A DNA stretch of 64,000 nt, taken from Candidatus Latescibacterota bacterium (GTDB lineage Bacteria; Latescibacterota; UBA2968; UBA8231). How positions within the stretch are numbered: the stretch's first letter is position 1; every line of letters starts with the position of its first letter. Location of the stretch: positions 992,001 to 1,056,000 of the forward strand of contig CBDFJF010000002.1 of assembly GCA_965248265.1 (NCBI GenBank), in the 5' to 3' direction. Shown in pieces: positions 1-33,500 of this stretch. Under the pieces are notes generated by a model. It was not told where the DNA came from. It made no database searches and worked only from the letters and a program-made list of their open reading frames with translations. The position numbers were made by a program, and so were the translations under genes.

Positions 1-1
1 T

Positions 2-145: not shown

Positions 146-157
146 GTCATAGAGCAC

Positions 158-3213: not shown

Positions 3214-3302
3214 CGGGTCGGTCCCATGTCTTTCGTCGTCGTGACGCAGGGGTCTCCGACAAAGATAGCATCAGTCGCGACGGCACGTTTCCCCTGCCAT
3301 GA

Positions 3303-5293: not shown

Positions 5294-5329
5294 TATCGCC
5301 CAGTTCGGAGCCCCGCGAGTAGGTAAGCT

Positions 5330-7092: not shown

Positions 7093-7477
7093 GGTTCAGT
7101 CTCCATGGGATCAGCAGACTGGCAGCCAACAGGGTCAACGTGTAAAGGGCAGCAGCCAGCAGGGAATAGAGCTGAACTCGTCCAGCCTTGGCCTTGATGC
7201 GATCGACGAGTTGTTGGTCTTCGATGGGCTCCGTTCCCTGCTCAGTGGTGCGCGCACCGCGCGCGGCGAGAAACACTCAGGTAGAGCTGAAGGCCTGAAA
7301 CAGGAAGAGCATGCACATCCAGGCTGGGATGAAGACGATGACGCGCACCGGCAGCGGGAAATCACTCACCGTGAACAGGCCCATGGAGCCGAGGCAGAAG
7401 AAAAACAGCAGAATTCCAAAAAACACTCTGAACCGACGGCCGTCCTCGGTGATATTCGAGGAGGAGATCTCAGCCAG
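7082..7477 (-). CDS. Candidate small membrane selenoprotein (about 131 aa, in-frame TGA read as Sec67)
   Basis: ORFs 7277..7501 and 7082..7276 are in the same frame and separated only by TGA (FQAFSST-U-VFLAARG); a hairpin follows the TGA; probable CTG start after GGAGGAGG, overlapping the AKR stop; three hydrophobic segments. Confidence 0.65.
7250..7264 (-). promoter_or_regulatory. Putative bacterial SECIS for the candidate selenoprotein
   Basis: UGA + 12 nt + GCGCGC-GGU-GCGCGC; spacing and GGU loop resemble the selD hairpin. Confidence 0.5.
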
Positions 7478-8372: not shown

Positions 8373-8403
8373 TGCCGTTTGGTTGATCTGTGGTGTGAAA
8401 GGA

Positions 8404-9132: not shown

Positions 9133-9956
9133 GCGGTAGACGACCTGCGAGACAGGAAGAAGGTGATGTTGGCCAGCAGGATGAAGGCGATGATGATGAC
9201 GTGGGTGACTGATTGCGGTCGCATGCCCGACGAGGCTTTATCCGCCCGCCCGACTAAACTCTCGTATTCAGCGGCGCCGGCGAGGCCACCGATCATCCCT
9301 ACCATTTGGCCCGACTGGATGAAGGGAAACAGGTCAGGAGCCATGACGGCCGTGCATCCCCCTGCAAACGGGAATTTATAGCGCTCCTGCCCGTAGGGTA
9401 TCCACCAGTGGTCGATCGATTCACCGGCCGCGAGATCGAAGACGAAATCGAAGTCCGTGAGGCTGTGAACATCGCGGGTGATCGCCAAGGTGTCGGCGAG
9501 GGCGCCGAAGTTGTCCGTGGGATAGGTATTGTGAAAGTCCTGCCCCATACTCAAGATGACGGCGTAACCCCCTGGTTTGAACCCCATCAAGGCGTAGTCG
9601 ACGCCATATTTCCGGTCGGATTCCGCCCCGACCTCCTCCAATGCCGCCTGTGCCAGGCCGACGGCATCCGGCCAAAGACAGACGGCCACGACTTCGATCT
9701 CACGCTCGAACAGGTGTCGTAGCAGAGCGTGCGCCATTGGCTGCAATTCCGGTTCCGACCCTCCGCCATAGGCGAAGGAGAGCAGGACTTTGCCATCTTT
9801 CACAGCGGCGACGCGCTCGATCTGCTCATACACGGCACGCACGTTGTCCCTGGCCTGGATCGGGAATGAGAACTCCATCAGCAGCGGCACGGTAACACCG
9901 ACAAGGACGAACAGGAAGATGATGCGTCGATCGAAATTCATCAGGCGCTCGATCAT
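9129..9956 (-). CDS. Membrane-anchored protein of unknown function (GlmL-like operon)
   Basis: N- and C-terminal TM helices around an alpha/beta domain; GGCTAVMAP, GGLAGAAEYE. Confidence 0.8.
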   Translation of the reverse strand: MIERLMNFDRRIIFLFVLVGVTVPLLMEFSFPIQARDNVRAVYEQIERVAAVKDGKVLLSFAYGGGSEPELQPMAHALLRHLFEREIEVVAVCLWPDAVGLAQAALEEVGAESDRKYGVDYALMGFKPGGYAVILSMGQDFHNTYPTDNFGALADTLAITRDVHSLTDFDFVFDLAAGESIDHWWIPYGQERYKFPFAGGCTAVMAPDLFPFIQSGQMVGMIGGLAGAAEYESLVGRADKASSGMRPQSVTHVIIIAFILLANITFFLSRRSSTA

Positions 9957-10612
9957 TCCCCTTTACCTCCTCCGAGATAGGAACGCTCGATGCCAAAAAT
10001 GATGCGCAACGCTGTGGCGATCGCACCGAGGCTGACTCCCAGCAGGATGCCGCGCTTGGCCGCCATGTTCGGAACCGCCATCAGCCAATCGGAGAACTGA
10101 GGGATTATGTCGGATATGTAAGCGCCGATCGGGACCCGTCCAAGCATAACGACGATGCCCGCGATCAGTAGCAGAGCCGCTTCTGTGCTTCGTGCCCGGA
10201 AGGTGCGGTAGGCTGCCGAGGCGATGAAGAAGGCGAGAATGGAGAACATGGTCGAAGTGCACGGCACGTAGACATTCAAAAACAGCCACTGGTACCCGCC
10301 GGTCTTGGCCTGGGCGTGGAAAGGGCCGCTGCCGTCGTTGTAGATGACGAAGGCGATCATCAAGCCGAAACTGACGAAAGCGACCAGGCTGTATCCCCAG
10401 CCGGCCTGCCGGGCGCGGATGCGGCTCCAGTGCAGGTTCTTGAGGCTGTAGAGACCGAGAACATAGGCGAAGGCGGTGATGATCATGAACCACTTGGCGA
10501 GGTCGCGCTCAAGCCCCTGGGCGACCGAATGCGGCACGTAGAAGACGAGAATTCCTATCACGCCCGACACAAAAGCCAGGATGAGTGGGAAGGTCCGACG
10601 CAGAAAGAGCAT
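9953..10612 (-). CDS. Multi-pass membrane protein of unknown function (GlmL-like operon)
   Basis: About 6 TM; STMFSILAFFIASAAYRTFRARS, AAKRGI..G, LRIIFGIERSYLG. Confidence 0.8.
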   Translation of the reverse strand: MLFLRRTFPLILAFVSGVIGILVFYVPHSVAQGLERDLAKWFMIITAFAYVLGLYSLKNLHWSRIRARQAGWGYSLVAFVSFGLMIAFVIYNDGSGPFHAQAKTGGYQWLFLNVYVPCTSTMFSILAFFIASAAYRTFRARSTEAALLLIAGIVVMLGRVPIGAYISDIIPQFSDWLMAVPNMAAKRGILLGVSLGAIATALRIIFGIERSYLGGGKGE

Positions 10613-10622
10613 ATCGATTGCC

Positions 10623-11843
10623 TTAAAGGGCCTTCAACAACTGGCTCAGGAAACTGACGTCGAGGGTAGCCAGGATGACGCCGGCGATGAGGACGGCCAG
10701 GAATATGGCTTTGCCGATATCCTGTCCCTTCAGACTTCCGAGCAGTCTGGGCTCTTTGGAAAGGTAGGCGCTGGCCGCGTACAACTCCTCGCCCATCAGG
10801 GTGTAGTCGCAAGTGGTGATGAAGAATGGGAGTTGGGTGTAGGAATCAGTGCCCGCAATCTGAATAGCTCCGGTCGTGGATCCGGTTTCGGCGAACAGCA
10901 GTGACTCGGCGAAGAATCCTCCCATCATGATGTGTGCTGCCGGCCGGTCGCGCAGCATGATGCCCTGCACCGCCGCGGCGTAGCTGAACTGATCGGTGCC
11001 GGCGACAAACACGTCATCCACGTTGAAGGCGTCCGGTCGACCTGCCTCGAGATAGGCCTCCTTGACCGTCTCCTGGCTGACCGACATGACGATGGGGTCG
11101 TAGTTGGTGACGCGCAGGCGGGCGTCGAAATCGGCGGTGCGCCTGGCGACGCGACTGAGAATGTTGATGGCGGCGATCGTCGGTATCTGGGACATATCTC
11201 GGAGGCCGTGGATGAACATGACGGCCCTGCCCATCTCGGTAGCTCGTCCCAAGGCTTCGTCCAGCGCTTCCAACCCGGCGATGCGCCGGATGTAAAACTC
11301 CCGCCGTCGGGCCATCGAGATCGACAACAGTATGATGATGGAAAACACCGAGCCCAGGATGAAATTGTTGAGCTTTGACCACTTGAAGAGGTTCTCTGCT
11401 GCCGTTACTGGAGGGCTCACGGAACCGCGCAGTTCACCGGATGGAGAGCGCACAACCAGGCGCACGAAGTAGGGCCGGCCGGCGACGATCTTCGTGGAGG
11501 ATTCCCCGCCGCTGCCGTCATAGCTGTCAATATGAGCGTAATGGTAGTTGGTGTTGTCCCCGGCGAAGCCGAAAACGGCCGGGTCGTCAGATTTGAAGCT
11601 GGTGCCCGCTTCGACCTCAGCTGCCAGATGAAAGGGGCCCTTTGCCGATTCCGCCACGTAAACGCGGTAGACGGTACCCGCAGGCGCCTGGTCAGCCGGT
11701 GGCCAGGTAACGGTTATGCTGCCACCGGCGTCGTCTGGCGTGTCGGACACTTCTATCTCGGGTACCGAGGCGGCCAGTTGGGCCGACGCCGGGTGGATCA
11801 GGACGCCAGTTGCGATCAGGCCAACCAGTACGGCGAAAATCAT
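10623..11843 (-). CDS. Signal peptide + FN3-like domain + TM + DUF6754-like domain protein
   Basis: Signal ending ASA; DTPDDAGGSITVTW (FN3-like); IRRIAGLEALDEALGRATEMGR, QIAGT..QLPFFITTCDYTLMGEELYAASAYL (DUF6754 name recalled, unverified). Confidence 0.75.
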   Translation of the reverse strand: MIFAVLVGLIATGVLIHPASAQLAASVPEIEVSDTPDDAGGSITVTWPPADQAPAGTVYRVYVAESAKGPFHLAAEVEAGTSFKSDDPAVFGFAGDNTNYHYAHIDSYDGSGGESSTKIVAGRPYFVRLVVRSPSGELRGSVSPPVTAAENLFKWSKLNNFILGSVFSIIILLSISMARRREFYIRRIAGLEALDEALGRATEMGRAVMFIHGLRDMSQIPTIAAINILSRVARRTADFDARLRVTNYDPIVMSVSQETVKEAYLEAGRPDAFNVDDVFVAGTDQFSYAAAVQGIMLRDRPAAHIMMGGFFAESLLFAETGSTTGAIQIAGTDSYTQLPFFITTCDYTLMGEELYAASAYLSKEPRLLGSLKGQDIGKAIFLAVLIAGVILATLDVSFLSQLLKAL

Positions 11844-13003
11844 TCCTGGATCAGCTCCACGTTGGCACGCGGGACCACGGCCGTCGAACCATCTTCGAAT
11901 TTTACTCGCAACACGCGCACGCTGGCTTCCGTCTCGATTGCTTGAAGGTCGGCGATGAGCTCGTCGACCATGCCGATGCGGCCGAAGTAGGGGGCGCGGA
12001 TGGCCCGCAGGGGATCGCCGAGTGCCAGGCCTCCCTGGTGGCTTTCACCGGGACGCTCTGGCACGCGCCCTTCTGTGTCATCATCTGTTTTAACGGCGGC
12101 TCGATTCGAGTCGATATTTGGCACGATGATCTCAGGACGCAGCACCCCGGCACGGATCTGGGTGGCGCCCGAAACGGAGGCTTCCCGACCGTTACACGAA
12201 GATAGGATATCGAAGGTCCGTGGCGCCATCGCCATTTTGCCGAAGCCCTCGGTGATGACGACGCTGACGCCGATGTCCTCCGAGCCGGTGATGGCCACGC
12301 CGAGGTCGTATCCCAGCAGATGGTGCAGGTCGCTGTCATGGATGCCGCCACCGATCACGGCAACGGCTCCAACCTCGGCCGCTTTGGCGATGGCGTCACT
12401 GGTCACCAGGCCGCCCCCTACGACGATCTTGCCGTTGCACTCGGAGTCGATCTGATCGGGCAGCAGGTCATCGTCCCGACTCGCCGCAACCTGACGAAGA
12501 GTTCCCCAGCGTTCGCCACCGACACCAAAAATGCCCTGCACCAGCGCACCCTCAACTTCAACGTGAACGCCCTCATCCTCGATCAGTTCGGTGACGACGC
12601 CATCGACGTAGGCGGAGATTTCCACCGGAGCCGGCGGGCGTCGCAGTATCACCTGTCCTGTCACCGGTGAAATGCTTTCAACGACACCATCGACCTCCGA
12701 TTTTATCACCGTCTTGAACCACTTGATCAGAGGATGGGTCTCAGCTAACGGCTCACCCACGGCGACAGCGTCACCCTCCTCCTTCAGCATGTAGCGTGAC
12801 AACTCCTGCGGCGTGATTCCAAGGCGGTTCACCAGGTTCACGGTGACGACATCACCCGGCATTTCGGTGCGGGCAACGACTTGGTCGCGCTGAACGAGGT
12901 CGCCGACCGATACCAGGACTTCGCCAAGCAGTGGCAGCCGTCGCTCCTTGACCAACCGAGTGCGAGGGGTAACCCGGAGTCCGGGGGTGTAGGCGTGCGC
13001 CAT
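11840..13003 (-). CDS. Conserved cytoplasmic protein with barrel-sandwich-hybrid-like repeats and a C-terminal KOW/SH3-like module
   Basis: GEVLVSVGDLV and LKEEGDAVAVGEPLA..SEVDGVV hybrid-motif patterns; TEGFG, ATQIRAGVLRPE; RAPYFGRIGMV..VPRANVE. Confidence 0.75.
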   Translation of the reverse strand: MAHAYTPGLRVTPRTRLVKERRLPLLGEVLVSVGDLVQRDQVVARTEMPGDVVTVNLVNRLGITPQELSRYMLKEEGDAVAVGEPLAETHPLIKWFKTVIKSEVDGVVESISPVTGQVILRRPPAPVEISAYVDGVVTELIEDEGVHVEVEGALVQGIFGVGGERWGTLRQVAASRDDDLLPDQIDSECNGKIVVGGGLVTSDAIAKAAEVGAVAVIGGGIHDSDLHHLLGYDLGVAITGSEDIGVSVVITEGFGKMAMAPRTFDILSSCNGREASVSGATQIRAGVLRPEIIVPNIDSNRAAVKTDDDTEGRVPERPGESHQGGLALGDPLRAIRAPYFGRIGMVDELIADLQAIETEASVRVLRVKFEDGSTAVVPRANVELIQE

Positions 13004-13005
13004 GT

Positions 13006-14817
<1,812 letters not shown>

Positions 14818-14818
14818 A

Positions 14819-15157
14819 TCAGTCGTGGTGATGGTTCTCTCTCCGCTCAATGGTCTCGATGAGGAGATCCACGCTCCGGCGCTTTTCAAGCAATCCCACG
14901 AAGCGATCGTACTCGGTTGAAGCGAAGATCAGGGTGGCGAACGGAGACATGAACGCGAGAAGCTGGCTGCCGACGAAATTCAGGGGCCTGCCGCTTTCGA
15001 GCAGCATCAACGCCGGCGTCGTCAAGCGGCGCTCGACGACGAAATCAGCGAAACGACAGACCAGGTGCCGCTCCTCGTCGTCGAAGGAACCATCCCGCTC
15101 CTCGTCGATGGCGAAGGCGTGTGCCGCCCAGGCCTTAAAGCCGTCAAGAGCCGACAT
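14819..15157 (-). CDS. Small conserved hypothetical protein
   Basis: VERRLTTPALMLLESGRPLNFVGSQ motif; ATG at 15157 preceded by GGAG. Confidence 0.75.
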   Translation of the reverse strand: MSALDGFKAWAAHAFAIDEERDGSFDDEERHLVCRFADFVVERRLTTPALMLLESGRPLNFVGSQLLAFMSPFATLIFASTEYDRFVGLLEKRRSVDLLIETIERRENHHHD

Positions 15158-15557
15158 GCTGCTCCACGAATGACGATACGCTTTCCCGGTTGCCAGGGCA
15201 GCGGATGAACTCGCCACGGAAGGAATCGAGGCGGTGTGCATGTTCGAACGGACTCAGGAATAGGCCATCACGACGGATCCGGGCACGCCCGAAGTCGGAC
15301 CAGGTGCGGCGCTTCTTCCACAACAGGTGCTCCGTTTCGACGCCCGATGCGTCTAAACGGTAGCGCGTTGGAAACAGGTAGCGGGACATTGCGGTTATCA
15401 GAGTTATGAGGCTGATCACCCCGTAAACGACGCCACCGAAGCTGTGCGCCGCGAGCAAAGGAAAAGCCACCAATGCCAGGCACAGGGAGGCGGATTTAAA
15501 CCGTGTTTCTTCCACAAGGGGGTGGACGATCCACTGCAGTGTCTTGGCGTCGCTCAT
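15144..15557 (-). CDS. Two-TM protein with a bacterial PH-like C-terminal domain
   Basis: Two hydrophobic helices, then FPTRYRLDASGV..RRTWSDF..LSPF..RLDSFRG. Confidence 0.7.
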   Translation of the reverse strand: MSDAKTLQWIVHPLVEETRFKSASLCLALVAFPLLAAHSFGGVVYGVISLITLITAMSRYLFPTRYRLDASGVETEHLLWKKRRTWSDFGRARIRRDGLFLSPFEHAHRLDSFRGEFIRCPGNRESVSSFVEQHVGS

Positions 15558-16228
15558 TCGGCCGCGATGCTGTCCTCGGGCACGATCAGGATTTCCCGTC
15601 CCCGGCAGTGGATATACCCCTCGACCTCCAGCTGCTTGAGAGCCCGCGTGACCGTTTCTCTGGTTGTGCCGGCCATGTTGGCCAGTTGCTGGTGGGTCGG
15701 CCGGCGCTCGATCAGGATGCCGTCCGCCGTCTCGACGCCATCGTCGGTGGCCAATCGCAGGATCGTCTTGGCGACACGGCTGTACACGTTGAGCAACGCC
15801 AGCCCGCCGACCTGATCGTCAGTGCGTCGCAGTCTTCCGGCGAGCTCCTCGAGCAAGGTTACCGCGATAGCGGGAACGCGGTTGACGAGTTCCTGGAAAT
15901 CGGAGCGTTTGAGGATGATGAGCTCAGTATCTTCCGTGGCCACGACGTTGGCTGAGCGGGGACGGTCATCCAGCAGTGCCAGCTCGCCGAAGAACTCGCC
16001 TTCGCCCAACAGAGACAGAATAAACTCACGGCCGTCCTCGTGAAGCAGGCTGACCTTCACCTGCCCCTCGCGGATGATGAAGAGTGAATCCCCTGCCTCC
16101 GCTGCCAGAATGATGAGCTGGCCTTTGGTGAAGTTGCGTGTGAAGGAGAGCTCCGACAGCGCATCGATCTCGCTGTTACCGAGCGCATCGAACAGAGGAA
16201 CGCGGCGCAAAAAATCAGAGGTCGACAA
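15554..16228 (-). CDS. Crp/Fnr family transcriptional regulator
   Basis: cNMP-binding FFGELALLDDRPRSA; HTH THQQLANMAGTTRETVTR. Confidence 0.93.
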   Translation of the reverse strand: MSTSDFLRRVPLFDALGNSEIDALSELSFTRNFTKGQLIILAAEAGDSLFIIREGQVKVSLLHEDGREFILSLLGEGEFFGELALLDDRPRSANVVATEDTELIILKRSDFQELVNRVPAIAVTLLEELAGRLRRTDDQVGGLALLNVYSRVAKTILRLATDDGVETADGILIERRPTHQQLANMAGTTRETVTRALKQLEVEGYIHCRGREILIVPEDSIAAE

Positions 16229-16381: not shown

Positions 16382-17359
16382 TCAAGTTGTATCGGCGATC
16401 CCTCCGGCCTCGCGCACAAGAGCAGCCAGGTTGGCGCGTTCGTGCTGAGGATCCACCAGACCGCTCAGGTCCTTACAATGCTGTCTGAGGCTGTCGTAAA
16501 ACGCCGAATCCGTCTCCGTCCGCTGCAGCAACTCAGCAAGCGCCTGGGTGTCGGAGTACGGAAAATACCCAGAATAATCAGCTCCCAACAATCCCACGGA
16601 TCCGGATATTCGAGATGACAGTACGGGTGTGCCACAGGCCAGTGCTTCGCCGACGACATTGGCTCCTCCCTCCATCTGTGAAGACAGAATCAGCAAGCGG
16701 CTCTTCGCCAGCAGTCGCAAAGCGCGCCACCTGGGCAGCTCGCCGAGCCAGCGGTAGCGCGGGTTGGCCGCCTGCTCGTCGCGAGCCTGCGTCGCCATGG
16801 CCGTTTCGATCGCGCCGCCGGCATGCAGGATTCGAATCCTGGACGACGGCGGCAACAGTCGCGAGGCGGCGGCGGCCCGAAACGGATCCTTCACCGGCCT
16901 CAGGTGGCCCAACACGCAGGCGTCGAATGAACTGCCCCGCCTGGATGCCAGTGGGTCGTTGAGGACTGGTGGCCGCACCGACTGGAAGATCACCCGTGCA
17001 CGTCCACGGTGGCGCTGCGGCAGCTCGTCGATTCCGCACGGTTGCAAAACGATGAACAGATCGGCTAATTCCAGCGCCGTCCTGGCAGCCGCGTCGGAAT
17101 GAATGTCGCCGTAGAGATCGGTGCCGGTGAGGGCCAGTACCAATGGTCTGGTCGGATGCCGGTCGCGAAAATGCTGGATCGATTCGAAGCTGCGCCGTGC
17201 ATGCAGGGCGATGAGCAGATCGCATCGCTGCCGATCGAATGTCTGGGCGATGCGGACGGTGTGTCCCAACTCGCGCAGCAGGCGTGACCATCGCAAGGCG
17301 GTGACCCGATTGCCCGAACGCGAGCGTGGTGCCGCCGGCGTCACGATCAGGACGTTCAC
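16382..17359 (-). CDS. senB: Selenosugar synthase SenB (TIGR04348-type glycosyltransferase)
   Basis: IVTPA..SGNRVTALRW, IALHARRS, LTGTDLY, GHLRPVKDP, MEGGANV; overlaps the senA stop; lies next to selD. Confidence 0.9.
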   Translation of the reverse strand: MNVLIVTPAAPRSRSGNRVTALRWSRLLRELGHTVRIAQTFDRQRCDLLIALHARRSFESIQHFRDRHPTRPLVLALTGTDLYGDIHSDAAARTALELADLFIVLQPCGIDELPQRHRGRARVIFQSVRPPVLNDPLASRRGSSFDACVLGHLRPVKDPFRAAAASRLLPPSSRIRILHAGGAIETAMATQARDEQAANPRYRWLGELPRWRALRLLAKSRLLILSSQMEGGANVVGEALACGTPVLSSRISGSVGLLGADYSGYFPYSDTQALAELLQRTETDSAFYDSLRQHCKDLSGLVDPQHERANLAALVREAGGIADTT

Positions 17360-18675
17360 GGTACGGCACAGGTGCGGAATCCGGTCAGCACGTCGCGCCG
17401 GTCAGGCGTTTGGAAATTTCGATAGTTGGTGCGGATCAGCCGAGAACGCGTCGTCCAGCATCCGCCCCGCATCACCATGCGCGTAGCGAACCACGGTTCA
17501 GAATATTCCTTGTAGGAATCCACCTCGAAACCGGGAAAGGGTTCGAAGGTCGAGCTCGTCCATTCCCACACATTGCCGATCATCTGCCGGCAACCGAAGG
17601 CACTGTCCCCGTCGGGAAGGGCGCCGACATCGACGCAGCCCATGGCACGCCAGTCGAGGTTTGCGCGGGTCGGGTTGGGCACCTCATCACCCCATGGAAA
17701 GCGCCGTTTGACAGCGGCAAGCCCTCCCCCTGCAGCGGGTTCGGAGCTGGCTGCGGCTTCCCATTCTGCCTCACTGGGCAAACGACGGCCGGCCCAGCGA
17801 CAATAGGTGTCCGCCTCGAACCAGTTGACGTGAATGACAGGTTTGTCTGCCTCCAGTTCCACCCATTGATCGAAATTGCGCCGTTCCCAGCCACCGTCTG
17901 CTCTGCGTCGCCAATAGACATGACAATGCGCATTCTCCGCCTGCCGCCACTCCCAACCGGCATCGCTCCAACACGTGCGCTGGTCATAACCACCGTCGTC
18001 GATGAAGGCAGCGTACTCGGACTGGGTCACGGGGGCGTGGGCAATCCTGAACGGATTCAGTTCCACCGGATGGGCCCACTTCTCGTTGTCGAACACGAAC
18101 GGCTCCTCTGGAGTCGACCCCAGCAGGTAGGTGCCTCCAGGAACGTCGGCATCACCCGTGCATGGCCCGCCGCCGATGTCTCGGTCAGAGCGCGCAACAT
18201 TCAGCGCCGGCTCCGGATAAGACAGTGTCTGTCGCGTGTAGGTGAGGGCCTCCGTGTGCATGTCTTCATGCAGTACCGAGTACAGGGTGTGGTAAGCCAG
18301 GTTGTCATCCGGACCCTTGCTTTGTAGCTGTTCGATCAATTGATCACGGACGGTACGGACGTAATTGAGGGTTTCCTCACGTGATGGCAGCGGCAGGTCC
18401 CAGCGGGTGTCGTGTGCGATGGCGATCGAATCGTAGAGGGCGTCTTCGTCGTCTCTTACCGGGGCGAGGCCACAGGCATGGCGCAGGGCCCAGAAGGACT
18501 GGAACCAGGCGTGATGTCCGATCTCCCACAGCCCTGGGTTGACGGTCGGGAGCTGGGCACCGATGAGGTCTTCATTGGACAGGTCGGATACCAGCTCGAG
18601 GGTCCGCTCGCGGGCTTCAGCAACCCAATCGATCAAATCCTCGACGGAGACTGCTTTCGTTACGTCGGTAGTCAT
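17356..18675 (-). CDS. senA: Selenoneine synthase SenA (EgtB homolog: DinB + FGE-sulfatase domains)
   Basis: NPGLWEIGH, LYDS, HEDMHTEA iron-ligand motif (not the HEQQHQE of EgtB), FDNEKWAH, RLPSEAEWE, GNVWEW; senB/selD context. Confidence 0.88.
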   Translation of the reverse strand: MTTDVTKAVSVEDLIDWVAEARERTLELVSDLSNEDLIGAQLPTVNPGLWEIGHHAWFQSFWALRHACGLAPVRDDEDALYDSIAIAHDTRWDLPLPSREETLNYVRTVRDQLIEQLQSKGPDDNLAYHTLYSVLHEDMHTEALTYTRQTLSYPEPALNVARSDRDIGGGPCTGDADVPGGTYLLGSTPEEPFVFDNEKWAHPVELNPFRIAHAPVTQSEYAAFIDDGGYDQRTCWSDAGWEWRQAENAHCHVYWRRRADGGWERRNFDQWVELEADKPVIHVNWFEADTYCRWAGRRLPSEAEWEAAASSEPAAGGGLAAVKRRFPWGDEVPNPTRANLDWRAMGCVDVGALPDGDSAFGCRQMIGNVWEWTSSTFEPFPGFEVDSYKEYSEPWFATRMVMRGGCWTTRSRLIRTNYRNFQTPDRRDVLTGFRTCAVP

Positions 18676-18848
18676 GGCAATAACTCAGGATGATCGCCGT
18701 AAGGATTGAAAGTGCAGGGACGCTGGGACCGCCGAATAATAGGGCCAAGGTTGAGCCCGATCAATGATAAATGGCTGTACTTGCACGAATTAGGAGTTGT
18801 GCGATTTTCGTATGTCTACATCAACTGCTAACACATGATGGGGGCACA

Positions 18849-19904
18849 GTGGCACTATTTTCCAAGAAAAAGACGCTGACCGGACTCGCCAAGACCTGCG
18901 GGTGAGCAGCCAAGGTGAGTCCGGTCGGACTCGACAAGCTGCTCCAGGCATTACCAAAGAAAGTCGACCCGAATCTACTGGTGGGTTTCGAGACGAGCGA
19001 TGACGCGGGTGTGTACCGATTGACCGACGATGTGGCCCTCGTCGTCACCGCCGACATCATCACTCCACCGGTAGACGACCCCTTCGTGTTCGGGCAGATC
19101 GGCGCCGCGAACTCAATCAGCGACGTGTACGCCATGGGCGGCAAACCAGTCACCTGCCTGAATCTGCTCGGTTTTCCTACGACCGAATTGGGGCCGGAGG
19201 TTCTGCAGGGGATTGTCGAGGGGGCGCTGACTAAGATCACGGAAGCCGAGGCGGTCCTGGCGGGGGGGCACACGACGGAAGATGAGGAGCCCAAGTTCGG
19301 CCTGGCAGTGACCGGAGTCGTGCATCCGAAAAAATACTGGCACAACAAGGGGGCCAGGCAGGGTGAGGTGTTGATTCTGACCAAGCGAATCGGCAGCGGC
19401 GTCTTGTTCAATGCCAATCTCAAGGGCTTGGTGCCGGAGGCGGCGATGAAGGCATGCATCGATTCGCTGATAACGCTGAACAAGTCGGCGGCGGAGGTGC
19501 TCCAGCACTACGACGTCAGTGCGGTCACGGACATAACCGGATTCGGCCTTGCCGGCCACGCTCTGGAAATGGCCAAGGGGTCGGATGTGACGCTGGAGAT
19601 CGACATCGATGCGATTCCGGTGATGGCAGAAGCTGCGAACATGTACGACAAGGGGGTTACTACCGGGTCCAATTTGAACAACCGCGCCCTGATCACCGGC
19701 CATACCCATTTCGATCGCGAGCTGCCCGGCAACAGCGGGGAGATTTTCGTGGACCCGCAGACCAGCGGCGGTTTACTGGCGGCGCTACCGGAGTCCCAGG
19801 CACAGGAGGCCCTTAGTAGAATGCACGACGCTGGGTTGGACGCCGCCTGCATCATTGGGCATGTTCGTCCACCCTCGGCGCCAGACTATCTGGTCTTCAA
19901 ATAA
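18849..19904 (+). CDS. selD: Selenide, water dikinase (SelD/SenC), selenocysteine-containing
   Basis: GTG 18849 gives MALFSKKKTLTGLAKTCG-TGA(18903)-AAKVSP, the U-x-x-K active site; DDAGVY, ANSISDVYAMGG, GGHT, TDITGFGL, DPQTSGGLL. Confidence 0.95.
18917..18932 (+). promoter_or_regulatory. SECIS element of selD
   Basis: UGA + 11 nt + perfect stem GAGUCC-(GGUC loop)-GGACUC. Confidence 0.8.
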
Positions 19905-19909
19905 TCATC

Positions 19910-19970
19910 AACATCAATCTTAAACACCAATCATAAAACACCAATTATAAACACCAACTATAAACACCAG
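19910..19970 (+). repeat. Five 13-14-bp tandem repeats (core AACACCAA) in the selD-transporter intergenic region
   Basis: Cores at 19910 (AACATCAA), 19923, 19937, 19950 and 19963 (AACACCAG); no G on the + strand from 19894 to 19969. Confidence 0.85.
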
Positions 19971-19984
19971 GGAGAGCGTTCTAC

Positions 19985-20839
19985 ATGAAGTGGATTTCCT
20001 TGCTGTCGTTGTTGCTGACCATCTCCACCGCCACCGCTGAACAGGCTTTTCGCTTCACCGCCATACCGGATCAAGACACTACCCGCCTGCAGGAGCGCTT
20101 TGACGGCATCGCCACCTATCTGTCCGGCAGGCTTGGGGTCACGGTCGGTTACATTCCTGTAAAGTCATACGCCGCTTCCGTGCAGGCTTTCAAAAACGAT
20201 GAAGTGCAGCTTGCATGGTTCGGGGGCCTGTCAGGCGTCAAGGCTCGCCGTGCAGTGCCCGGATCAAAGGCGATCGCGCAGGGGCAGGAGGATCTCGCCT
20301 TCGTGTCCTATTTCATCGCCCACGCCAGCACGGGACTGAAGGAGTCTGAGGAGTTCCCAGAGGGGATTCGGGGCAAGACCTTCACCTTTGGATCGAAAGG
20401 CTCGACCTCCGGCCGTCTGATGCCGGAATTCTACCTGCGCAAGCACCTGGGTGGCGCCCCCACCGAGGTCTTCGAGCGCCACGGCTTCAGCGGTGATCAC
20501 TCCAAGACCATCGCGCTGGTGCAATCGGGAAGCTGGCAGGTGGGCGCTCTCAACTACAAGGTGTGGGACACCGAGCTCAAGGAAGGCAAGATCGATACCA
20601 GCAAAGTCAGCGTCATCTGGCGGACACCGACGTACCCGGATTACAACTGGTCCATACGCGGGGATGTGGAGGGAAAGTACGGCAAGGGTTTTATCGATCG
20701 CGTCCAACAGGCGCTGTTGCAGATGGAAGATCGCAGCCTGCTGGATCGTTTCCCACGCACCAAGTTCGTACCCGCGAACAATGATATGTACGGTCCGATC
20801 CTCAGCACGGGCACGGCCATCGGCCTGTTCGAGAAATGA
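19985..20839 (+). CDS. Putative selenate ABC transporter substrate-binding protein (PhnD-like, TIGR04553-type)
   Basis: Signal peptide; FTAIPDQD, LAWFGGLSGV.AR, FTFGSKGSTSGRLMP, FSGDHSKT, YPDYNW; directly follows selD. Confidence 0.85.
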   Translation: MKWISLLSLLLTISTATAEQAFRFTAIPDQDTTRLQERFDGIATYLSGRLGVTVGYIPVKSYAASVQAFKNDEVQLAWFGGLSGVKARRAVPGSKAIAQGQEDLAFVSYFIAHASTGLKESEEFPEGIRGKTFTFGSKGSTSGRLMPEFYLRKHLGGAPTEVFERHGFSGDHSKTIALVQSGSWQVGALNYKVWDTELKEGKIDTSKVSVIWRTPTYPDYNWSIRGDVEGKYGKGFIDRVQQALLQMEDRSLLDRFPRTKFVPANNDMYGPILSTGTAIGLFEK

Positions 20840-20862
20840 CCCTCCGACACACGTAGACCATT

Positions 20863-21516
20863 GTGTACGACATAGAAAACCTGACCGTCGCCTATGACGA
20901 AGCGCCCGTCCTGGAGAACATCTCCCTCCGCATCCGTGCGGGGGAGAAAGCCGTCATCATCGGTCCCAGCGGTGCAGGCAAGTCGACGCTGCTGAAGAAG
21001 CTCTATGAACTGAGGCAGGAGCACTGCGCTTTCATCCACCAGGACTACGCCTTGATCCCGCAGTTGTCCGCCTTCCACAATGTCTACGCCGGGAGGCTGG
21101 ACACGACGGCGACTTTCTCAAATCTGCTGAATCTGATACGCCCGCGGGACCACGCACTGGAGGAGATTCAGCCGATTTTCCAGGCGCTGGAGATGGGGGA
21201 CAAAATCAACGAGCGAGTCAGCAATCTGTCCGGTGGTCAGCAGCAGCGGGTAGCCGTCGGTCGCGCCATCTACCGACGCAGTGACATCCTACTGGGCGAT
21301 GAGCCGGTCTCATCCATTGACCCTCACCAGGCCGGCTCAGTGCTGCAACTCATCAAGGACAGTTCGCCGACCGTGGTCCTGGCCATGCACGATGTGCGGC
21401 TGGCGCTTGAGCACTTCCCCCGGGTGATTGGGCTGCGTGAGAAGTGCGTGGCCTTCGACCTCCCGGCCGCGGAAGTGGACGAGTCCGTACTGCGGGACCT
21501 GTACGCTGGTGAGTGA
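20863..21516 (+). CDS. ABC transporter ATP-binding protein (PhnC-like)
   Basis: Walker A GPSGAGKST, signature LSGGQQQR, Walker B LLGDEP. Confidence 0.9.
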   Translation: MYDIENLTVAYDEAPVLENISLRIRAGEKAVIIGPSGAGKSTLLKKLYELRQEHCAFIHQDYALIPQLSAFHNVYAGRLDTTATFSNLLNLIRPRDHALEEIQPIFQALEMGDKINERVSNLSGGQQQRVAVGRAIYRRSDILLGDEPVSSIDPHQAGSVLQLIKDSSPTVVLAMHDVRLALEHFPRVIGLREKCVAFDLPAAEVDESVLRDLYAGE

Positions 21517-21570
21517 TGGAATCGCCGGCAGGCATCCTGGTAAGTCGAGCTGGCGCAGATCGGTAGCCGC

Positions 21571-23061
21571 ATGCTGAAGGTGAGTCTGTCGTTTCTGGCT
21601 GTCGCCCTGCTGTGTCTTGGACTGGCTGATGTTGAGGTAACGACGCTCGATCCCTGGCAGGAGATCGAGCGCATCGCCACGGGATTCGTTACCCCCGACC
21701 TGCCCGTTCTACTGGGGTTTCGCGAGGCCTTACTCAACACCGTCACCTTCGCCTTCTGCGGCATCGCCATCGGGCTCGGGTTCGGCTCCATTCTAGCCCT
21801 GTTCTTTCAATACACGGCCGTACGTCTGTTTTGCGCCTTCATCCGCGCCATACACGAGATCTTCTGGGCCTTCCTGTTCCTGCCCCTGGTGGGGCTGAAC
21901 CCCGTTTGCGGAGTGCTGGCCATCGGCATTCCGTACGCAGGGGTTTTCGGCAAGGTATTCGCCGAGATCCTACAGGAGGCGGACCAGAGACCGCTGGAGG
22001 GACTACCCGCAAACACCAGTCGCATGAGTCGCTTCCTGTACGGGGTGCTCCCCGTCATCTACCACGACCTCAAGAGCTACACGTCCTATCGTTTTGAGTG
22101 CGCCCTACGCTCAAGCGCCATTCTCGGATTTATCGGCTTGCCTACGCTCGGATTTCACCTGGAGACGGCATTCCGTGAGGGCCTGTACTCGGAGGCGCCG
22201 GCTCTCCTCTACGCCTTCTACCTGTTGATCGCGTCCCTGCGCTACTGGGTAAAGCCGAAACTCGTTCTCGTCTACGTGGCCGCTTCGTTCGCGCTGATCT
22301 CGACCGAAGTCAATATATCACTGCAGAACATCACGCGGTTTCTGACCTATGAGATCCTGCCATGGCCGATGCGGCGAGAGGGTTTTCTCAGCGGCAGCCG
22401 TGAGGTGTCCTTCCCCATTGAGCAGGTCTGGCAATGGGGCGTCGACCTCTTTACCAGCGAGGCGCTGCCCGGGATGTGGAACACGGTCATACTGACGCAG
22501 GTCGTGCTCGCAGGCACTGCCATCTTTACGCTGGTATTCTTCGGTGGGATCTGCCGGCACCTGACGTCACAGCGGCCAGCGCGCGGGTTGGCGCACTACG
22601 GGCTCATCGTTCTGAGGACAACGCCGGAGTACATCATGGCCTACGTGTTCTTGCAGATGTGGGGGCCGTCGATGCTGCCGGCGATTCTGGCGATTACTCT
22701 CCATAACGGCGCCATACTGGCCTACCTTACAGGTAAGAACGCCGATCTGGTGGAGCTGCGAATGGACGCCCCGAGCAAGCGGCGCAATCGCTATCTGTTC
22801 GAGATTCTGCCAAGGGTCTACGGCCAGTTCCTGGCCTTCCTGTTCTATCGCTGGGAGGTGATGATGAGGGAATCGGCCATGCTCGGAATCCTGGGCATAT
22901 TCACGATCGGTTTTTTCATCGACAGTGCGATCGCTGACGACAAGCTGGACAAGGCGGTGTTCCTCATCGCCCTGACGGCTCTCTTGAACATGGGTATCGA
23001 TTCCATTTCACAGCTGATTCGCAAACGTCTGCGCGTAACCACCGGGGCCGTGTACACTTGA
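21571..23061 (+). CDS. ABC transporter permease with two fused PhnE-like halves
   Basis: RAIHEIFWA and YRFECALRSSAILGFIG; second half LRTTPEY and YRWEVMMRESAMLG. Confidence 0.88.
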   Translation: MLKVSLSFLAVALLCLGLADVEVTTLDPWQEIERIATGFVTPDLPVLLGFREALLNTVTFAFCGIAIGLGFGSILALFFQYTAVRLFCAFIRAIHEIFWAFLFLPLVGLNPVCGVLAIGIPYAGVFGKVFAEILQEADQRPLEGLPANTSRMSRFLYGVLPVIYHDLKSYTSYRFECALRSSAILGFIGLPTLGFHLETAFREGLYSEAPALLYAFYLLIASLRYWVKPKLVLVYVAASFALISTEVNISLQNITRFLTYEILPWPMRREGFLSGSREVSFPIEQVWQWGVDLFTSEALPGMWNTVILTQVVLAGTAIFTLVFFGGICRHLTSQRPARGLAHYGLIVLRTTPEYIMAYVFLQMWGPSMLPAILAITLHNGAILAYLTGKNADLVELRMDAPSKRRNRYLFEILPRVYGQFLAFLFYRWEVMMRESAMLGILGIFTIGFFIDSAIADDKLDKAVFLIALTALLNMGIDSISQLIRKRLRVTTGAVYT

Positions 23062-23104
23062 TCCACTCACTTGTTTCTGTAATTGGGAGGAGAAGCATCA
23101 ACGT

Positions 23105-24100
23105 ATGAAAAGGGCAATTTTCTTTTTCGCGGTAGCGGGCCTGCTGGCCGCTGCTGACGGAGCTGCAGCTGAAAGCAAGCTTTCGGGCAACACCTTCGGT
23201 GACTACTACTGGTTCGCCGCAAACCACGACGCGGCCACGGAAGATCAGAATGGTCTGTGGATCCGGCGGGTATACCTGACCTATGACATGAACAAGAGTG
23301 ACAATGTGTCCCTGCGCTTTCGTCTGGAATCAGGGAGTCCCGGTGTTGGCGGCGCGGGCAAAATGGAGCCGTTCGCGAAGGACGCCTATTTGAAGTGGAC
23401 CCCTGGCGGGGGAAGCCGCACGTGGTACATCGGCCTGTCAGGAGCGCCGACCTTCACGGGAGTCGAAAAGGCCTGGGGTTACCGGCATGTCGAGAAAACG
23501 CCCGTCGACCTCTACAAGCTCGGCTCCACGCGGGACTTCGGCATTGGAGTCAAACACAAACTGAGTGAAAAAGCTGACCTCCACCTGATGATCGGTAACG
23601 GCAACAGCACGGGAGCCGAGAACAACAAGGGCAAGAAATACATGGCTTCCGCCGGGCTGGCGCTCACCGACGACATCACCGTGCGCGGGAACCTCGATTT
23701 CGACGACCAGGCGGGCGAGGCCACCTTCATGACCGCCCAGGTGCTGCTGTTTCAGAAGACGGATACCTACCGGTGGGGTCTGCAATACGTACTCAACAAT
23801 CAGGATAACGGCACGACCGACCAGAGCGTTAACGTGGCTGCCGGCTACGTCGTTTTCTATTTGAACGAGGGCACGTCCGCGCTGGTGAGGGTTGACGCGT
23901 TGCTGGACGAGAGTCCGAAGGTGGGCGGCGGTTACCTGCCGCTGGTCAATACCTCAAAGCACTACTTCATTCTGGCGGGTGTCGACTTTTCGCCCGAAGA
24001 GAATTTCCACGTGATCCCGAATGCTGAAATCGTCGTCTACGATCAGGGTGGCGTGGATACCGACATTGTGCCGCGGGTGACGTTCTCCTACACGTTCTAA
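23105..24100 (+). CDS. Outer-membrane porin-like beta-barrel
   Basis: Signal peptide, IRRVYLTYD, KDAYLKW, alternating beta strands, C-terminal Phe (TFSYTF); strong GGGAGG RBS. Confidence 0.75.
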   Translation: MKRAIFFFAVAGLLAAADGAAAESKLSGNTFGDYYWFAANHDAATEDQNGLWIRRVYLTYDMNKSDNVSLRFRLESGSPGVGGAGKMEPFAKDAYLKWTPGGGSRTWYIGLSGAPTFTGVEKAWGYRHVEKTPVDLYKLGSTRDFGIGVKHKLSEKADLHLMIGNGNSTGAENNKGKKYMASAGLALTDDITVRGNLDFDDQAGEATFMTAQVLLFQKTDTYRWGLQYVLNNQDNGTTDQSVNVAAGYVVFYLNEGTSALVRVDALLDESPKVGGGYLPLVNTSKHYFILAGVDFSPEENFHVIPNAEIVVYDQGGVDTDIVPRVTFSYTF

Positions 24101-30224: not shown

Positions 30225-30536
30225 ATGAATTCATTCTCGCACATAGACGTGGATGTCGCCAGGGAAAAACTGGATGCCGACGAGGCCATCTTCGTCGACA
30301 TCAGGGACGGCGACTCGCGCCGGGACGGACACATCGCCGGCTCGGTGCATCTGACGGACGAGACCGTCGAAGGGTTTTTGAGTGCCACTGATACGGAGCG
30401 GCCCGTCATCGTCTACTGTTACCATGGCAACAGCAGCCAGATGGCTGCGCAGTTCCTGGTAGAGCGCGGCTTTTCGGAGGTGTACAGCATGGACGGCGGT
30501 TATGAGGCATGGGCGAGCAGGCATCCCGAGCTGTAA
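30225..30536 (+). CDS. glpE: Thiosulfate sulfurtransferase (single rhodanese domain)
   Basis: VDIRD, GHIAG, VYCYHGNSSQ, YSMDGGYEAW. Confidence 0.88.
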   Translation: MNSFSHIDVDVAREKLDADEAIFVDIRDGDSRRDGHIAGSVHLTDETVEGFLSATDTERPVIVYCYHGNSSQMAAQFLVERGFSEVYSMDGGYEAWASRHPEL

Positions 30537-33500
30537 TGAGCTCCTCGCCTCCAATGGATTCGAGCCGAGGATTGCGCATCGCCCGTCGGTACCGGGCCAC
30601 TGATGCCGTAGTGCCGTGGCTCACCGCGGCTCTGGTCTTGCTCGGAGCCCCATTGGGTGCACAGCACGCCGGCACTGGAGTCAGCATCCAGATTCTGGAA
30701 CAGCACCCTGACCGTCTGCGGTTGGTCTACTCCGTCGGATCTTCCGTAAACGACGCGATGCAGGAAGGTGGCCCGATTTCGGCCGGGTTGTTGGGGTCCC
30801 TGTGTGAGACCAGTGTGGTCGGGATCCCACTTGCTGGAGAGGTTGAGCTGGAGATCGTCGAGGTGAGTCCGGCCGGCACCTTCGGCATGCCTGTGTTACC
30901 TGACGGGGAATGGGATCTGCGACTGGATGGGCCGGTCTCCCTGGGCGAACCGGGCTTCGTGCGCAACCAACGCGTTGTCCAGGTGAATTTTACCCCCCGT
31001 GCCGCGGATGGTGGTAGTCAGGTGCAACTGTTCACGAGAGTGGTTGCAGACCTGCGTTTCGCCGTCGGGTCTCATCGTGCGGGCTATCGCCATCCGGTAT
31101 CCAGCTGGGAGGAGCAATTCTACAAACATGCACTCATCAACTACGAGCAGGCCATCGCCTGGCGGCAGACACCGGCAGTGGCCAAGCCAGTTGCCGAGGA
31201 AGGCACAGCCCCGGATCGAGTCAGAATCACCGTGCGGCAACAGGGGATTCACCGACTCACGGGAGAGGATCTGGCCGACGCTGGGGTCTCGCTGAGCGAG
31301 ATCGACCCTGACGCAATCCGCATGTGGTACGGAGGCGGAGTCACCCTCGGGTTATCCAGACAGCCCCATTTTGGCGCCCGCCTGCGCGAGATCCCGATCG
31401 CCGTGGACGATGACGACGGCCGTTTCGACAGCGCTGACGCCGTCATGTTTTACGGCGAGCCGACCGAACGCTGGGTGTTCTCCAGCAGCAACGGCGGTGA
31501 GTACTCCTGGCGGCAAAACCCCTACACTCGGGACAACGTGTACTTCCTGGAGTGGGCGGTTGAGGGCAGTGGCTTTCGCGCCGGAACCGTTTCCGGGGCT
31601 CTGTCGGAGCCGGATGTGATTCAGTCGGACCGCTACCGCGAGCGTGTCCATGAGGAGGATGACGGGGATACGATCATCGAACTGTTGGGTATCAAGTCCG
31701 GCTATGACTGGTATTGGGAAACATTTCGGGGCAACGTCAAGGAGTTCTCCTCGTCCCTTTGGGACGTGGTGCCGGAGCAACCGGTCGATGTCAACGTCAG
31801 CTTCTGGGGCTTCAGTGAGGGCAGGCACCAGTTCGAGATTAAGTGGAACGACAGGTCGATCGGCGTTCACAGCTTTTCGGGATCGGGTGTCGGGACCCTG
31901 ACTGCCATCGCCACACGGGGCACGCTGGAGGGGGCGAACCAGCTCAGCCTGTCTCACCGGGACAACACGGCGACCCGGCTGGATTGGTACGAACTGGAAT
32001 ACAGCCGCGCGTTGCGTGCTCGCGACGGTGCGGTGTCCTTTGACTGGTTGAGCGCGACCGGTTTGACGAGTGATGAAGTGTCCAGCGCCAACTCCACAGC
32101 CCAATTCCTGCTGTCCGGCTTCGAGGATGGCCGACCCAGGATCTTCGAGTTCAGGGCACTCCGTACCCTGAAAGAAATCGTCGATTTCGAATACGACGAC
32201 GCGACCGGTTCTGCAACCTTTCAAGGTCTGTACACCGGTTCTGGCACACCACCCCAGTTCCTCGCGATGGGCGATGACGGCTGGAAACGCCCTGCAACGG
32301 TCGAGGCGAAGAGTCATGCCCGGTTGAAGACGTCCGACAACGGAGCCGAGTACGTCATCATCACACACGAGGACTTCCGTGCGGCGGCCGACAGGTTGGC
32401 AGCCTGGCGCGCTGTCGATGACCGCTTTGGACCGCCGCTGACGACGCACGTGGCTGACGTAGAGGATATCTACGACGAGTTTTCCGCCGGCCTGCTCGAC
32501 CCCATGGCGATTCGCAGCTTTGTCAACTTCGCAGTCGACAACTGGGATCCCGCCCCCGTTTTCATCCTGCTGATGGGGGACGGCACCTACGATTACAAGA
32601 ATAACTTCGGGAACAGCCACACCAACTGGATACCCCCTTATCAGGATGGCGCTAGCATGTACGACGAGTGGTACGTCCGTATCGAGGGGGACGATGATCT
32701 GCCCGATCTCGCCATCGGTAGGCTGCCGGTCGGCTCGACGAGCGAAGCGGATGCAGTCGTCGACAAACTCATCTCATACGATCGAGATCCCGAAATCGGA
32801 CCGTGGCAAGCGCGGGTGCTGCTGGTGTCCGACGACCGGGTGAATCCGACCTCCAAAAAGGACGAGCCTTTCTTCGTCCGTGACGCAGAGAGGTTGGCAG
32901 CATTCTCTGTGCCGCTGGATATGGATATCTCGAAGCTCTACTTCGGTGAATTCCACCTCGAGGGACGGACAAAGCCCGCAGCACGCGAAGCCTTTGTCAA
33001 GCGGTTCAACGAGGGGGCTCTAATCCTGACCTACGTGGGCCACGGCAATCCTGAGACGATCGCACACGAGCAGGTGTTCGTACTGTCCCGCGACATCGAG
33101 AGCATCGACAACGGCCGTCGACTCCCGCTGGTGTACACCGCAGCCAGTCAGGTCGGGGTGTTCGACGAACCATCGCGGCGGTCGATGCCCGAAGTCTTCA
33201 TCAACGATCCGGATGGAGGTGTCATCGGTTTCATTTCCGCCACTCGAGTGGGCATCCACATCAGCAACATGAACCTGGCCAGGGAGTTTCACAAGATCAT
33301 GTACAGGAGTGGGGATGACCGGGTCCCGGTGGGATTGGCGTTGACCATTGCCAAGCAACGCGCCCCGGCTTCGATAAAAGATCGCATCAACATTCAACGT
33401 TATTCGTTGCTCGGCGATCCGGCGCAGATCCTCAACCGACCCTTCCTCAAGGTGCAGATCGAGGCGCCCGACTCGCTCAACGCGTTTCAGGAAGTCCATG

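Follow-up and report, generated by a model that had tools for sequence, protein, structure and literature searches.

Specific selenium uptake by bacteria is poorly defined, and the locus described here raises the question of whether one bacterium may encode, side by side, the path of this element from the outer membrane to a finished selenometabolite. The locus lies on contig CBDFJF010000002.1 (assembly GCA_965248265.1) of a Candidatus Latescibacterota bacterium, within a stretch of 64 kb (positions 992,001 to 1,056,000) which is called the window below. It consists of two divergent gene groups. The minus strand carries senA and senB, and the plus strand carries selD (senC), the three genes of an ATP-binding cassette (ABC) importer and a gene for an outer-membrane porin. 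All seven genes were located at the coordinates given in the initial annotation of this DNA, with the open reading frame (ORF) table and the family scans in agreement. We consider it probable that these genes form a two-operon selenium unit, in which porin and importer feed SelD, SenB and SenA to yield selenoneine.

Much of this arrangement has precedent. Kayrouz et al. (10.1101/2022.04.13.486033) describe sen clusters (senA, senB, senC), in which the same three enzyme families are clustered, and report a gene for a “putative selenate transporter” near many of them; the combination of sen genes with a transporter is, therefore, not new. Selenocysteine (Sec)-containing SelD and the genomic neighborhood of the binding protein family TIGR04553 are known as well. 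Compared to the published cluster, senAB is divergent from selD in the window, SelD is a predicted selenoprotein, the ABC trio is co-oriented with selD, a porin gene stands at the operon end, and there is no egtD nearby. Thus, the novelty asserted in the initial annotation holds for the outer-membrane porin only, a term which is absent from the main text of the preprint.

Two further sen-bearing loci were used for comparison. L001 belongs to a Gemmatimonadetes-labelled metagenome-assembled genome (MAG) and L047 to a Deferribacteres-labelled MAG. Family scans of the window (Pfam and NCBIfam) covered 58 ORFs, and statements on its gene content refer to these 64 kb.

SenB and SenA

senB (16382–17359, minus strand) encodes a GT4 glycosyltransferase of 325 amino acids (aa) with the Pfam domain Glycos_transf_1. 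Its score of 398.5 bits with TIGR04348 exceeds the curated equivalog cut-off of 300. The gene adjoins, with an overlap of 4 bp, the gene of an EgtB-like enzyme (senA; 17356–18675, minus strand), and the gene of a SelD homolog starts divergently at a distance of 173 bp (18676–18848). The initial annotation had put this divergent region at about 170 bp, and the divergent layout is also present in L001. SenB is, accordingly to its family, a predicted selenosugar synthase acting on selenophosphate and a uridine diphosphate (UDP)-sugar.

The senA product (439 aa) is a candidate non-heme-iron selenoxide synthase with DinB and FGE-sulfatase domains. It reaches 493.6 bits with the SenA model NF041186 (cut-off 420), and its 339.2 bits with the EgtB model TIGR03440 remain under the cut-off of 360. 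Together with the binding protein discussed below, which scores 370.3 bits with TIGR04553 (cut-off 250), all profile comparisons suggested in the initial annotation (TIGR04348, TIGR04553, SenA versus EgtB) came out in favor of its gene assignments. The three His iron ligands (GH..., LHEDMH) are kept in the window protein, as are the catalytic Tyr and the Tyr next to it (SYKEY), with the roles of the His triad and the catalytic Tyr taken from PMC11237966. Three more residues determine whether histidine (OvsA: Met401, Gln430, Ala431) or hercynine (SenA: Tyr366, Asn395, Phe396) is the substrate (PMC11030361). In the printed alignments, the window motifs SYKEY and YRNF match SenA of Variovorax paradoxus (PYRDY, YRNF) and not OvsA (YPFM, YRQA). 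Because these residues are the Tyr/Asn/Phe of the SenA type, the assignment as SenA was kept; an enzyme of this type would, therefore, need hercynine.

A selenocysteine codon in selD

The selenophosphate synthetase gene selD/senC occupies 18849–19904 on the plus strand and codes for 351 aa. As a plain ORF it covers 18915–19904 only, but Sec readthrough of the TGA at 18903–18905 extends the start to a GTG at 18849 and makes Sec residue 19. The part after the TGA scores 338 bits with TIGR00476 (cut-off 125). When TGA is translated as U, the sequence reads ...LAKTCGUAAKVSPVGL..., placing U at the catalytic Cys/Sec position of G-(C/U)-x-x-K (GUAAK). The same TGA and the conserved N-terminus are found in L001 and L047, including conservation of the 18 residues before the TGA.

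The 66-nt stretch 18895–18960 folds with −27.6 kcal/mol (z-score −2.56) and contains a hairpin (18904–18944, plus strand) which resembles a selenocysteine insertion sequence (SECIS) and starts inside the UGA. Its lower stem pairs 18904–18910 with 18938–18944 and its upper stem 18916–18922 with 18927–18933; the apical loop GGUC (18923–18926) is invariant over the window, L001 and L047. In an alignment of the three loci, 92.9% of the cells pair, compared to 26–48% in slid controls. Two upper-stem pairs are compensatory (U-A to C-G and G-C to C-G), at codon positions that are synonymous or conservative. In loop sequence and spacing, we take the hairpin to be like the fdhF element of E. coli. Since no Rfam match was obtained, the SECIS call is based on folding and covariation.

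Among the best 120 SelD relatives, 118 are 308–333 aa long, cover 87–94% of the query and are without the N-terminus. The other two are full-length; they were called with another genetic code and read through, with W at the codon aligned to the TGA. The short lengths of the majority fit a gene caller ending at the TGA, and the SelD clade of the window, therefore, appears to be uniformly of the Sec type. Based on the in-frame TGA (Sec19), its presence in L001 and L047 and the conserved hairpin, the Sec-containing selD of the initial annotation is confirmed as a prediction, i.e., the window SelD is a putative selenoprotein. Sec-containing SelD itself is well known (PMC4561486); what differs here is that the Sec form would act as the synthetase of a sen cluster. 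If so, selenoneine synthesis would depend on the Sec-decoding trait. PMC11929427 holds nothing on Sec versus Cys forms of SenC.

The closest named SelD relatives derive from Gemmatimonadota and Latescibacterota MAGs (63–66%), followed by KSB1, Acidobacteriota and Desulfobacterales (61–65%). The initial annotation had suggested an uncultured lineage of the Fibrobacteres-Chlorobi-Bacteroidetes (FCB) type. This is plausible given such relatives, as Gemmatimonadota belong to NCBI’s FCB group; the relatives are compatible with this placement rather than establishing it.

The importer and its ligand

selD is followed on the plus strand by genes for a PhnD-like periplasmic substrate-binding protein (19985–20839, 284 aa), an ABC ATPase (20863–21516, 217 aa; Pfam ABC_tran) and a double-length permease with two PhnE-like halves (21571–23061, 496 aa). 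From selD to the porin gene, the gaps measure 80, 23, 54 and 43 bp. The best NCBIfam model of the ATPase is PhnC, with 169.8 bits below the equivalog cut-off of 266.1. Similarly, the permease scores 203.9 bits with PhnE (TIGR01097) over two stretches, below the equivalog cut-off of 216.7.

The link of this importer to selenium is contextual and recurs across loci. In the window, the binding-protein gene follows selD after 80 bp, and L001 has the same order; in L047, the order is selD, porin, binding-protein gene with gaps of 1–2 bp. On a Paracoccus chromid (L082, plasmid record of Paracoccus liaowanqingii, locus 1–11000), the same binding protein is encoded with an ATPase of ~220 aa and a permease of ~500 aa next to genes for formate dehydrogenase subunits (fdh), fdhE, selA and selB; an unannotated gap of 3.4 kb is located at the place expected for a Sec-containing catalytic subunit. 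In three Rhodobacterales loci, a permease of ~500 aa comes after the genes for this binding protein and ATPase.

To our knowledge, the annotation label “selenate transporter” has never been tested. The best solved relative of the binding protein is PhnD1 of Synechococcus (7s6g, 232 bits), which belongs to the picocyanobacterial PhnD1C1E1 system (7s6g, 5lq5). The direct phosphate ligands of PhnD1 are Tyr44, Ser124-Thr125-Ser126, His156, Asp203 and the capping Tyr204; phosphite is bound more strongly than phosphate or methylphosphonate and hypophosphite is unbound, from which a requirement for three oxygens in trigonal arrangement was concluded (PMC10284923). While its ligand residues are shared with the window protein, the PhnD1 gene is not located beside selD or sen genes, and binding was measured for phosphite, phosphate and methylphosphonate. 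The string “selen” occurs 0 times in the main text of PMC10284923; therefore, its assays do not exclude selenium oxyanions. Two residues of the window protein which contact a buried water differ from PhnD1 (Thr to Ser and Ser to Gly). An Asp acceptor selects a protonated oxyanion, which is how PstS discriminates against sulfate. At neutral pH, selenate has lost all its protons and selenite is largely HSeO3−. Because the Asp acceptor favors the protonated oxyanion, hydrogen selenite would be a better selenium candidate than selenate. Thus, hydrogen selenite appears more plausible than selenate as the ligand, with phosphorus oxyanions as a live rival.

Structure and family of the porin

The last gene of the plus-strand group (23105–24100, 331 aa) encodes an outer-membrane beta-barrel porin with a signal peptide and a C-terminal Phe, and has GGGAGGAG upstream. 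In Pfam, only a sub-threshold match to BBP2 was obtained (22.8 bits, cut-off 26.2). An AlphaFold2 (AF2) model built on 37 relatives has 16 strands, with a predicted local distance difference test value (pLDDT) of 89.0 and a predicted template modelling score (pTM) of 0.83. Its Foldseek matches are trimeric general or anion porins, namely Omp-Pst2 (E-value 6e-12), Omp32 (TMq 0.72) and OprP (TMq 0.74, the highest listed); the general porins OmpC and OmpF match as well. On the sequence level, searching the family profile against the sequences of solved structures gave chance-level matches only. The model places a helical loop after strand 5 (residues 115–136), which carries the most conserved motif of the family, WGYRxVEKT. 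Within the searched length band, the family comprises 209 proteins at 90% clustering, and at 50% identity there are 2142, 1343 and 530 clusters at E-values ≤ 1e-3, 1e-10 and 1e-30, respectively.

Two known porins invite comparison. OprP/OprO (PF07396; 2o4v) have the 16-strand barrel in common with the window porin, and the inward-folded third loop of these proteins is likewise present in the AF2 model. An arginine ladder and anion selectivity are further hallmarks of OprP/OprO; in the family of the window porin, ten basic positions show a conservation of 90% or more across 88 sequences. Weak matches to Porin_O_P (PF07396) are found in 15 of 37 family members (best E-value 1.5e-6). ExtI of Geobacter sulfurreducens is also a porin-like outer-membrane protein and is implicated in selenite and tellurite reduction (PMC5877670). 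However, ExtI is encoded in a cytochrome (ext) cluster for dissimilatory reduction and not beside assimilation genes. Among the papers returned by a literature search on porins and selenite or selenate uptake, ExtI is the only selenium-linked porin named in a title.

Genomic context and phylogeny of the porin family

A 15-sequence alignment was used as query, and the flanks of the best 80 of 547 confirmed relatives in species-representative genomes were analyzed. Selenium linkage was determined by tblastn of six selenium-cluster proteins against the 80 loci, and context classes refer to genes within 5 kb. Operons of dimethyl sulfoxide (DMSO)-reductase-family molybdoenzymes were found at 37 loci, pst genes at 17 and selenium genes at 2 (L001 and L047); 24 loci, several on short contigs, showed none of these. 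L001 encodes senA, selD, the binding protein, ATPase, permease and a porin of 57% identity, which is syntenic with that of the window. L047 encodes senA, senB, selD, porin and binding protein, the porin gene standing between selD and the binding-protein gene. L047 further contains a gene for a sigma-54-dependent activator without receiver domain (3359–4474, plus strand) upstream of senA, and a 378-aa ORF on the opposite strand between senA and senB. A tblastn search with the porin against 72,556 plasmid records gave no match.

In the phylogenetic tree (quick maximum-likelihood, 88 porins), the window porin, the L001 porin and seven metagenome proteins (53–86% identical) form a clade with a Shimodaira-Hasegawa-like approximate likelihood ratio test (SH-aLRT) value of 100 and a stem of 1.25. 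The context is known for two members of this clade, window and L001, and both are selenium-linked. The L047 porin falls outside the clade and groups with one porin labelled Cytophagia and with three porins of Balneolaceae that are pst-linked (SH-aLRT 93 and 87); judged by the tree, it is an independent recruitment into a sen cluster from an unrelated branch. Based on the tree and on the 2 of 80 contexts, the selenium link is one narrow clade plus one independent recruitment, not a trait of the family. The co-occurrence of porin and selenium genes expected in the initial annotation is, thus, seen in the porin’s own clade (2/2) and in one independent case, but not in the family, since 78 of 80 relatives are located elsewhere. 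Residue 194, a beta-strand position in the model, is the sole charge reversal marking the selenium-linked clade: it is Arg in eight of the nine members, and Glu (67) or Gln (12) in the other 79 porins.

For the molybdoenzyme loci, 29 of 33 catalytic subunits beside porins were scanned (the four omitted are fragments). The best model was TtrA in 17 cases, ArrA in nine and PhsA in two, with one subunit matching none, the TtrA-like proteins having ~1050 aa and the ArrA-like ~860 aa. As all matches are far below the equivalog cut-offs, they do not assign substrates, and lineages of FCB, Gemmatimonadota and Acidobacteriota may here possess reductases that are so far uncharacterised. In ten of these loci (L002, L007, L009, L012, L022, L025, L028, L032, L042, L059), a gene for a PhnD-like binding protein, scoring only 56 bits with TIGR04553, precedes the porin gene. 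Eight of the ten also encode a histidine kinase and a sigma-54 response regulator, whereas L012 has the kinase only and L032 the regulator only. Such sets resemble the AioXSR/ArxXSR oxyanion sensor triads. A porin in arr or arx clusters is not apparent from the titles and abstract openings of the papers listed on them.

Proposed route of selenium

On the minus strand, senA-senB would provide the two enzymes of selenoneine synthesis which form carbon-selenium bonds; the plus-strand operon would provide Sec-containing SelD/SenC, a PhnD1-like binding protein, an ATPase, a double-length permease and the porin. A selenium oxyanion, hydrogen selenite being likelier than selenate, would pass the outer membrane through the porin, bind to the periplasmic binding protein and be imported by the ABC transporter. 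Reduction to selenide might be achieved by cellular thiols, as the cluster contains no gene for this step. SelD would then turn selenide into selenophosphate, SenB would form a selenosugar from selenophosphate and a UDP-sugar, and SenA would join the selenosugar to hercynine, giving selenoneine. Hercynine would have to be taken up or be supplied through an egtD at another place in the genome, and the Sec-decoding machinery for SelD would be encoded elsewhere. The porin may, thus, let selenium oxyanions into the cell. A bolder proposal is that its clade is a dedicated hydrogen selenite entry channel within a modular “substrate-entry” porin family; we put this forward tentatively and regard it as rather doubtful.

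Alternative explanations

Several results speak against the proposed unit and have to be set against it, together with the explanations they would favor. All ligands in the model are predicted, as are fluxes, co-transcription and the final product. Concerning SelD, the shuffle control of the covariation is weak, as the alignment has three sequences only and the observed count is reached in 47 of 500 shuffles, and Rfam yielded no gathering-score match across the window and nothing relevant at E ≤ 10 around the TGA. If the TGA were a true stop or a lesion, the enzyme would start at GTG 18915 and be devoid of its catalytic loop, and standard gene callers give exactly this 329-aa ORF. We find this scarcely credible, as the upstream frame is open and conserved on the protein level in three loci, the TGA coincides with the catalytic Cys/Sec residue and precedes a conserved hairpin, and two relatives under another genetic code read straight through. 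Concerning SenA, the solved structures which match best are engineered OvsA-YNF (319 bits) and wild-type OvsA (309 bits), ahead of EgtB (259 bits) and SenA of V. paradoxus (243 bits); overall, the candidate is closer to OvsA, the ovoselenol enzyme with the same fold and the same selenosugar donor (PMC11030361). Further, no EgtD-type family was found among the 58 window ORFs or among six ORFs scanned in L047, and organisms with ovs genes characteristically lack egtD. The protein could, then, be an OvsA-like or novel selenoxide synthase using histidine or another acceptor, with a product other than selenoneine. However, this is quite improbable. The residues discriminating histidine from hercynine are Tyr/Asn/Phe in the window where OvsA has Met/Gln/Ala, the engineered OvsA-YNF outscores the wild type, and the SenA model is matched above its cut-off. 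Moreover, the window ORF scans found no OvsM-like methyltransferase, the associate of OvsA, beside the sen cluster, and the egtD negative covers only 64 kb of a contig of ~4.14 Mb. Besides egtD, the window ORFs scanned include no gene reducing a selenium oxyanion to selenide and no family match for selA or selB, and the 64-kb window has zero tRNAs of any kind and, hence, no tRNA-Sec. The “complete route” from uptake to selenometabolite claimed in the initial annotation is, consequently, not contained in the window.

The same weighing is necessary for the transport genes. The window protein shares with Synechococcus PhnD1 all seven direct ligand residues (Tyr, Ser-Thr-Ser, His, Asp-Tyr) and two further named pocket residues (Asp, Asn). 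Four more TIGR04553 proteins, one from L001 and three from plasmid or chromid records of Rhodobacterales, also have the seven ligand residues. Judged by homology only, the importer would be a phosphorus-oxyanion system. Because the contact residues are those of a phosphite/phosphate binder, the “selenate” label has no support on the residue level; of the putative selenate-binding protein in the initial annotation, TIGR04553 membership stands, whereas selenate is assigned from context only. Accordingly, binding protein, ATPase, permease and porin might constitute a PhnD1CE-type phosphite/phosphate operon which merely neighbors selD, with selenium entering otherwise. PhnD1 as closest solved relative, the binding of phosphite and phosphate by PhnD1 proteins (PMC10284923), the 17 of 80 porin relatives in pst operons and the model type of TIGR04553, a “hypothetical equivalog”, are in line with this. 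Nevertheless, we judge it unlikely: selD and transporter are adjacent in three distant lineages with differing gene orders, the transporter is also found beside selA and selB in Paracoccus and is reported near many sen clusters (10.1101/2022.04.13.486033), neither a phosphite dehydrogenase nor a pho gene is present in the cluster, and the PhnD1 assays do not speak against selenium oxyanions. A related objection applies to the porin, which could be a general or phosphate-type diffusion porin standing at the operon end by chance and having no selenium-specific role. Its ion selectivity is not readable from the sequence, and it does not match PF07396 at E ≤ 0.01. Just two selenium-linked relatives were found among the 80, and the fold matches OmpC and OmpF as well as OprP. 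In addition, three examined of 16 TIGR04553 plasmid or chromid records show no annotated porin up to 8 kb from the transporter, and three examined of four sen records show none up to 7 kb from senB, the plasmid gene tables being incomplete. We take this explanation seriously but think that it is on balance doubtful. The porin gene follows the permease gene on the same strand after 43 bp without a terminator-like site in between, synteny is kept in L001, and the clade has a long, fully supported branch. In L047, a porin gene was inserted independently between selD and the binding-protein gene. Finally, 56 of 80 relatives have a molybdoenzyme (37), pst (17) or selenium (2) system encoded no more than 5 kb away, indicating dedicated rather than housekeeping porins. 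In sum, we favor the two-operon selenium unit.

Intergenic region and flanking genes

The divergent region between senA and selD contains one sigma-70-like match on the minus strand (18764–18736), which is not above the expectation from shuffled sequences. No repeats were found in 18676–18848, and no block is conserved between the intergenic regions of the window and L001. A TGGC...TTGC motif, spotted by eye and considered as a sigma-54 site, was dropped due to wrong spacing. An imperfect inverted repeat (18781–18804, plus strand; TTGCAC...GTGCGA), followed by a T-rich stretch, was flagged as terminator-like in a scan. It is not conserved in L001 and could be an operator instead of a terminator.

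Downstream of senB, at a distance of 153 bp and on the same strand, a Crp/Fnr-family regulator is encoded (15554–16228, minus strand; Pfam cNMP_binding and HTH_Crp_2), which may be part of the selenium unit, may regulate it or may be unrelated. The initial annotation spoke of a selenium “island”. In the sense of foreign DNA this was rejected, as the guanine-cytosine content of the selenium region (0.58–0.61) is similar to that of the flanks and no mobile-element families were detected among the window ORFs scanned. Seven same-strand ORFs with operon-like arrangement lie upstream of the selenium unit (8404–14889, minus strand). They include a PF13941 “MutL” protein (429 bits) and a DUF6754 protein (377 bits). 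For the remaining five, no Pfam family is matched at E ≤ 1e-8. Further along, the product of 30509–34432 (plus strand; 1307 aa) has a C25 (gingipain-type) peptidase domain; such proteins are common in FCB-group bacteria. At 50521–51963 (plus strand), a 480-aa protein resembling glyceraldehyde-3-phosphate dehydrogenase has an N-terminal extension of ~130 residues and belongs to a widespread family of ~481 aa (at least 8000 matches, all with E ≤ 1e-50). Its closest relatives are 72–98% identical, and those with a taxonomic label (63–70%) are scattered among Poribacteria, a Moanabacter MAG and Desulfuromonadales, so that this protein gives no placement of the lineage.

Implications

The locus would represent a compact unit from uptake to metabolite and gives reason to consider selenite over selenate, against phosphite and phosphate, as the substrate of its importer. 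With respect to the porin, the results point to an unstudied family (~2,100 clusters at 50% identity) whose genes accompany those of periplasmic anion systems, in phyla for which little is known about outer-membrane transport. If the proposed function is true, the porin would add a first outer-membrane component to the pathways of selenium assimilation, and FCB, Gemmatimonadota and Acidobacteriota bacteria would pair such porins with pst systems, ArrA/TtrA-like reductases or a selenium importer. As a corollary of this proposal, the PhnD1/TIGR04553 site, with its trigonal arrangement of three oxygens, small cap and Asp acceptor, would serve for selenite, and the tight binding of phosphite by PhnD1 in picocyanobacteria which are unable to use phosphite would find an explanation. 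If the binding-protein prediction is true, the annotation of PhnD1-like transporters in marine cyanobacteria might have to be reconsidered.

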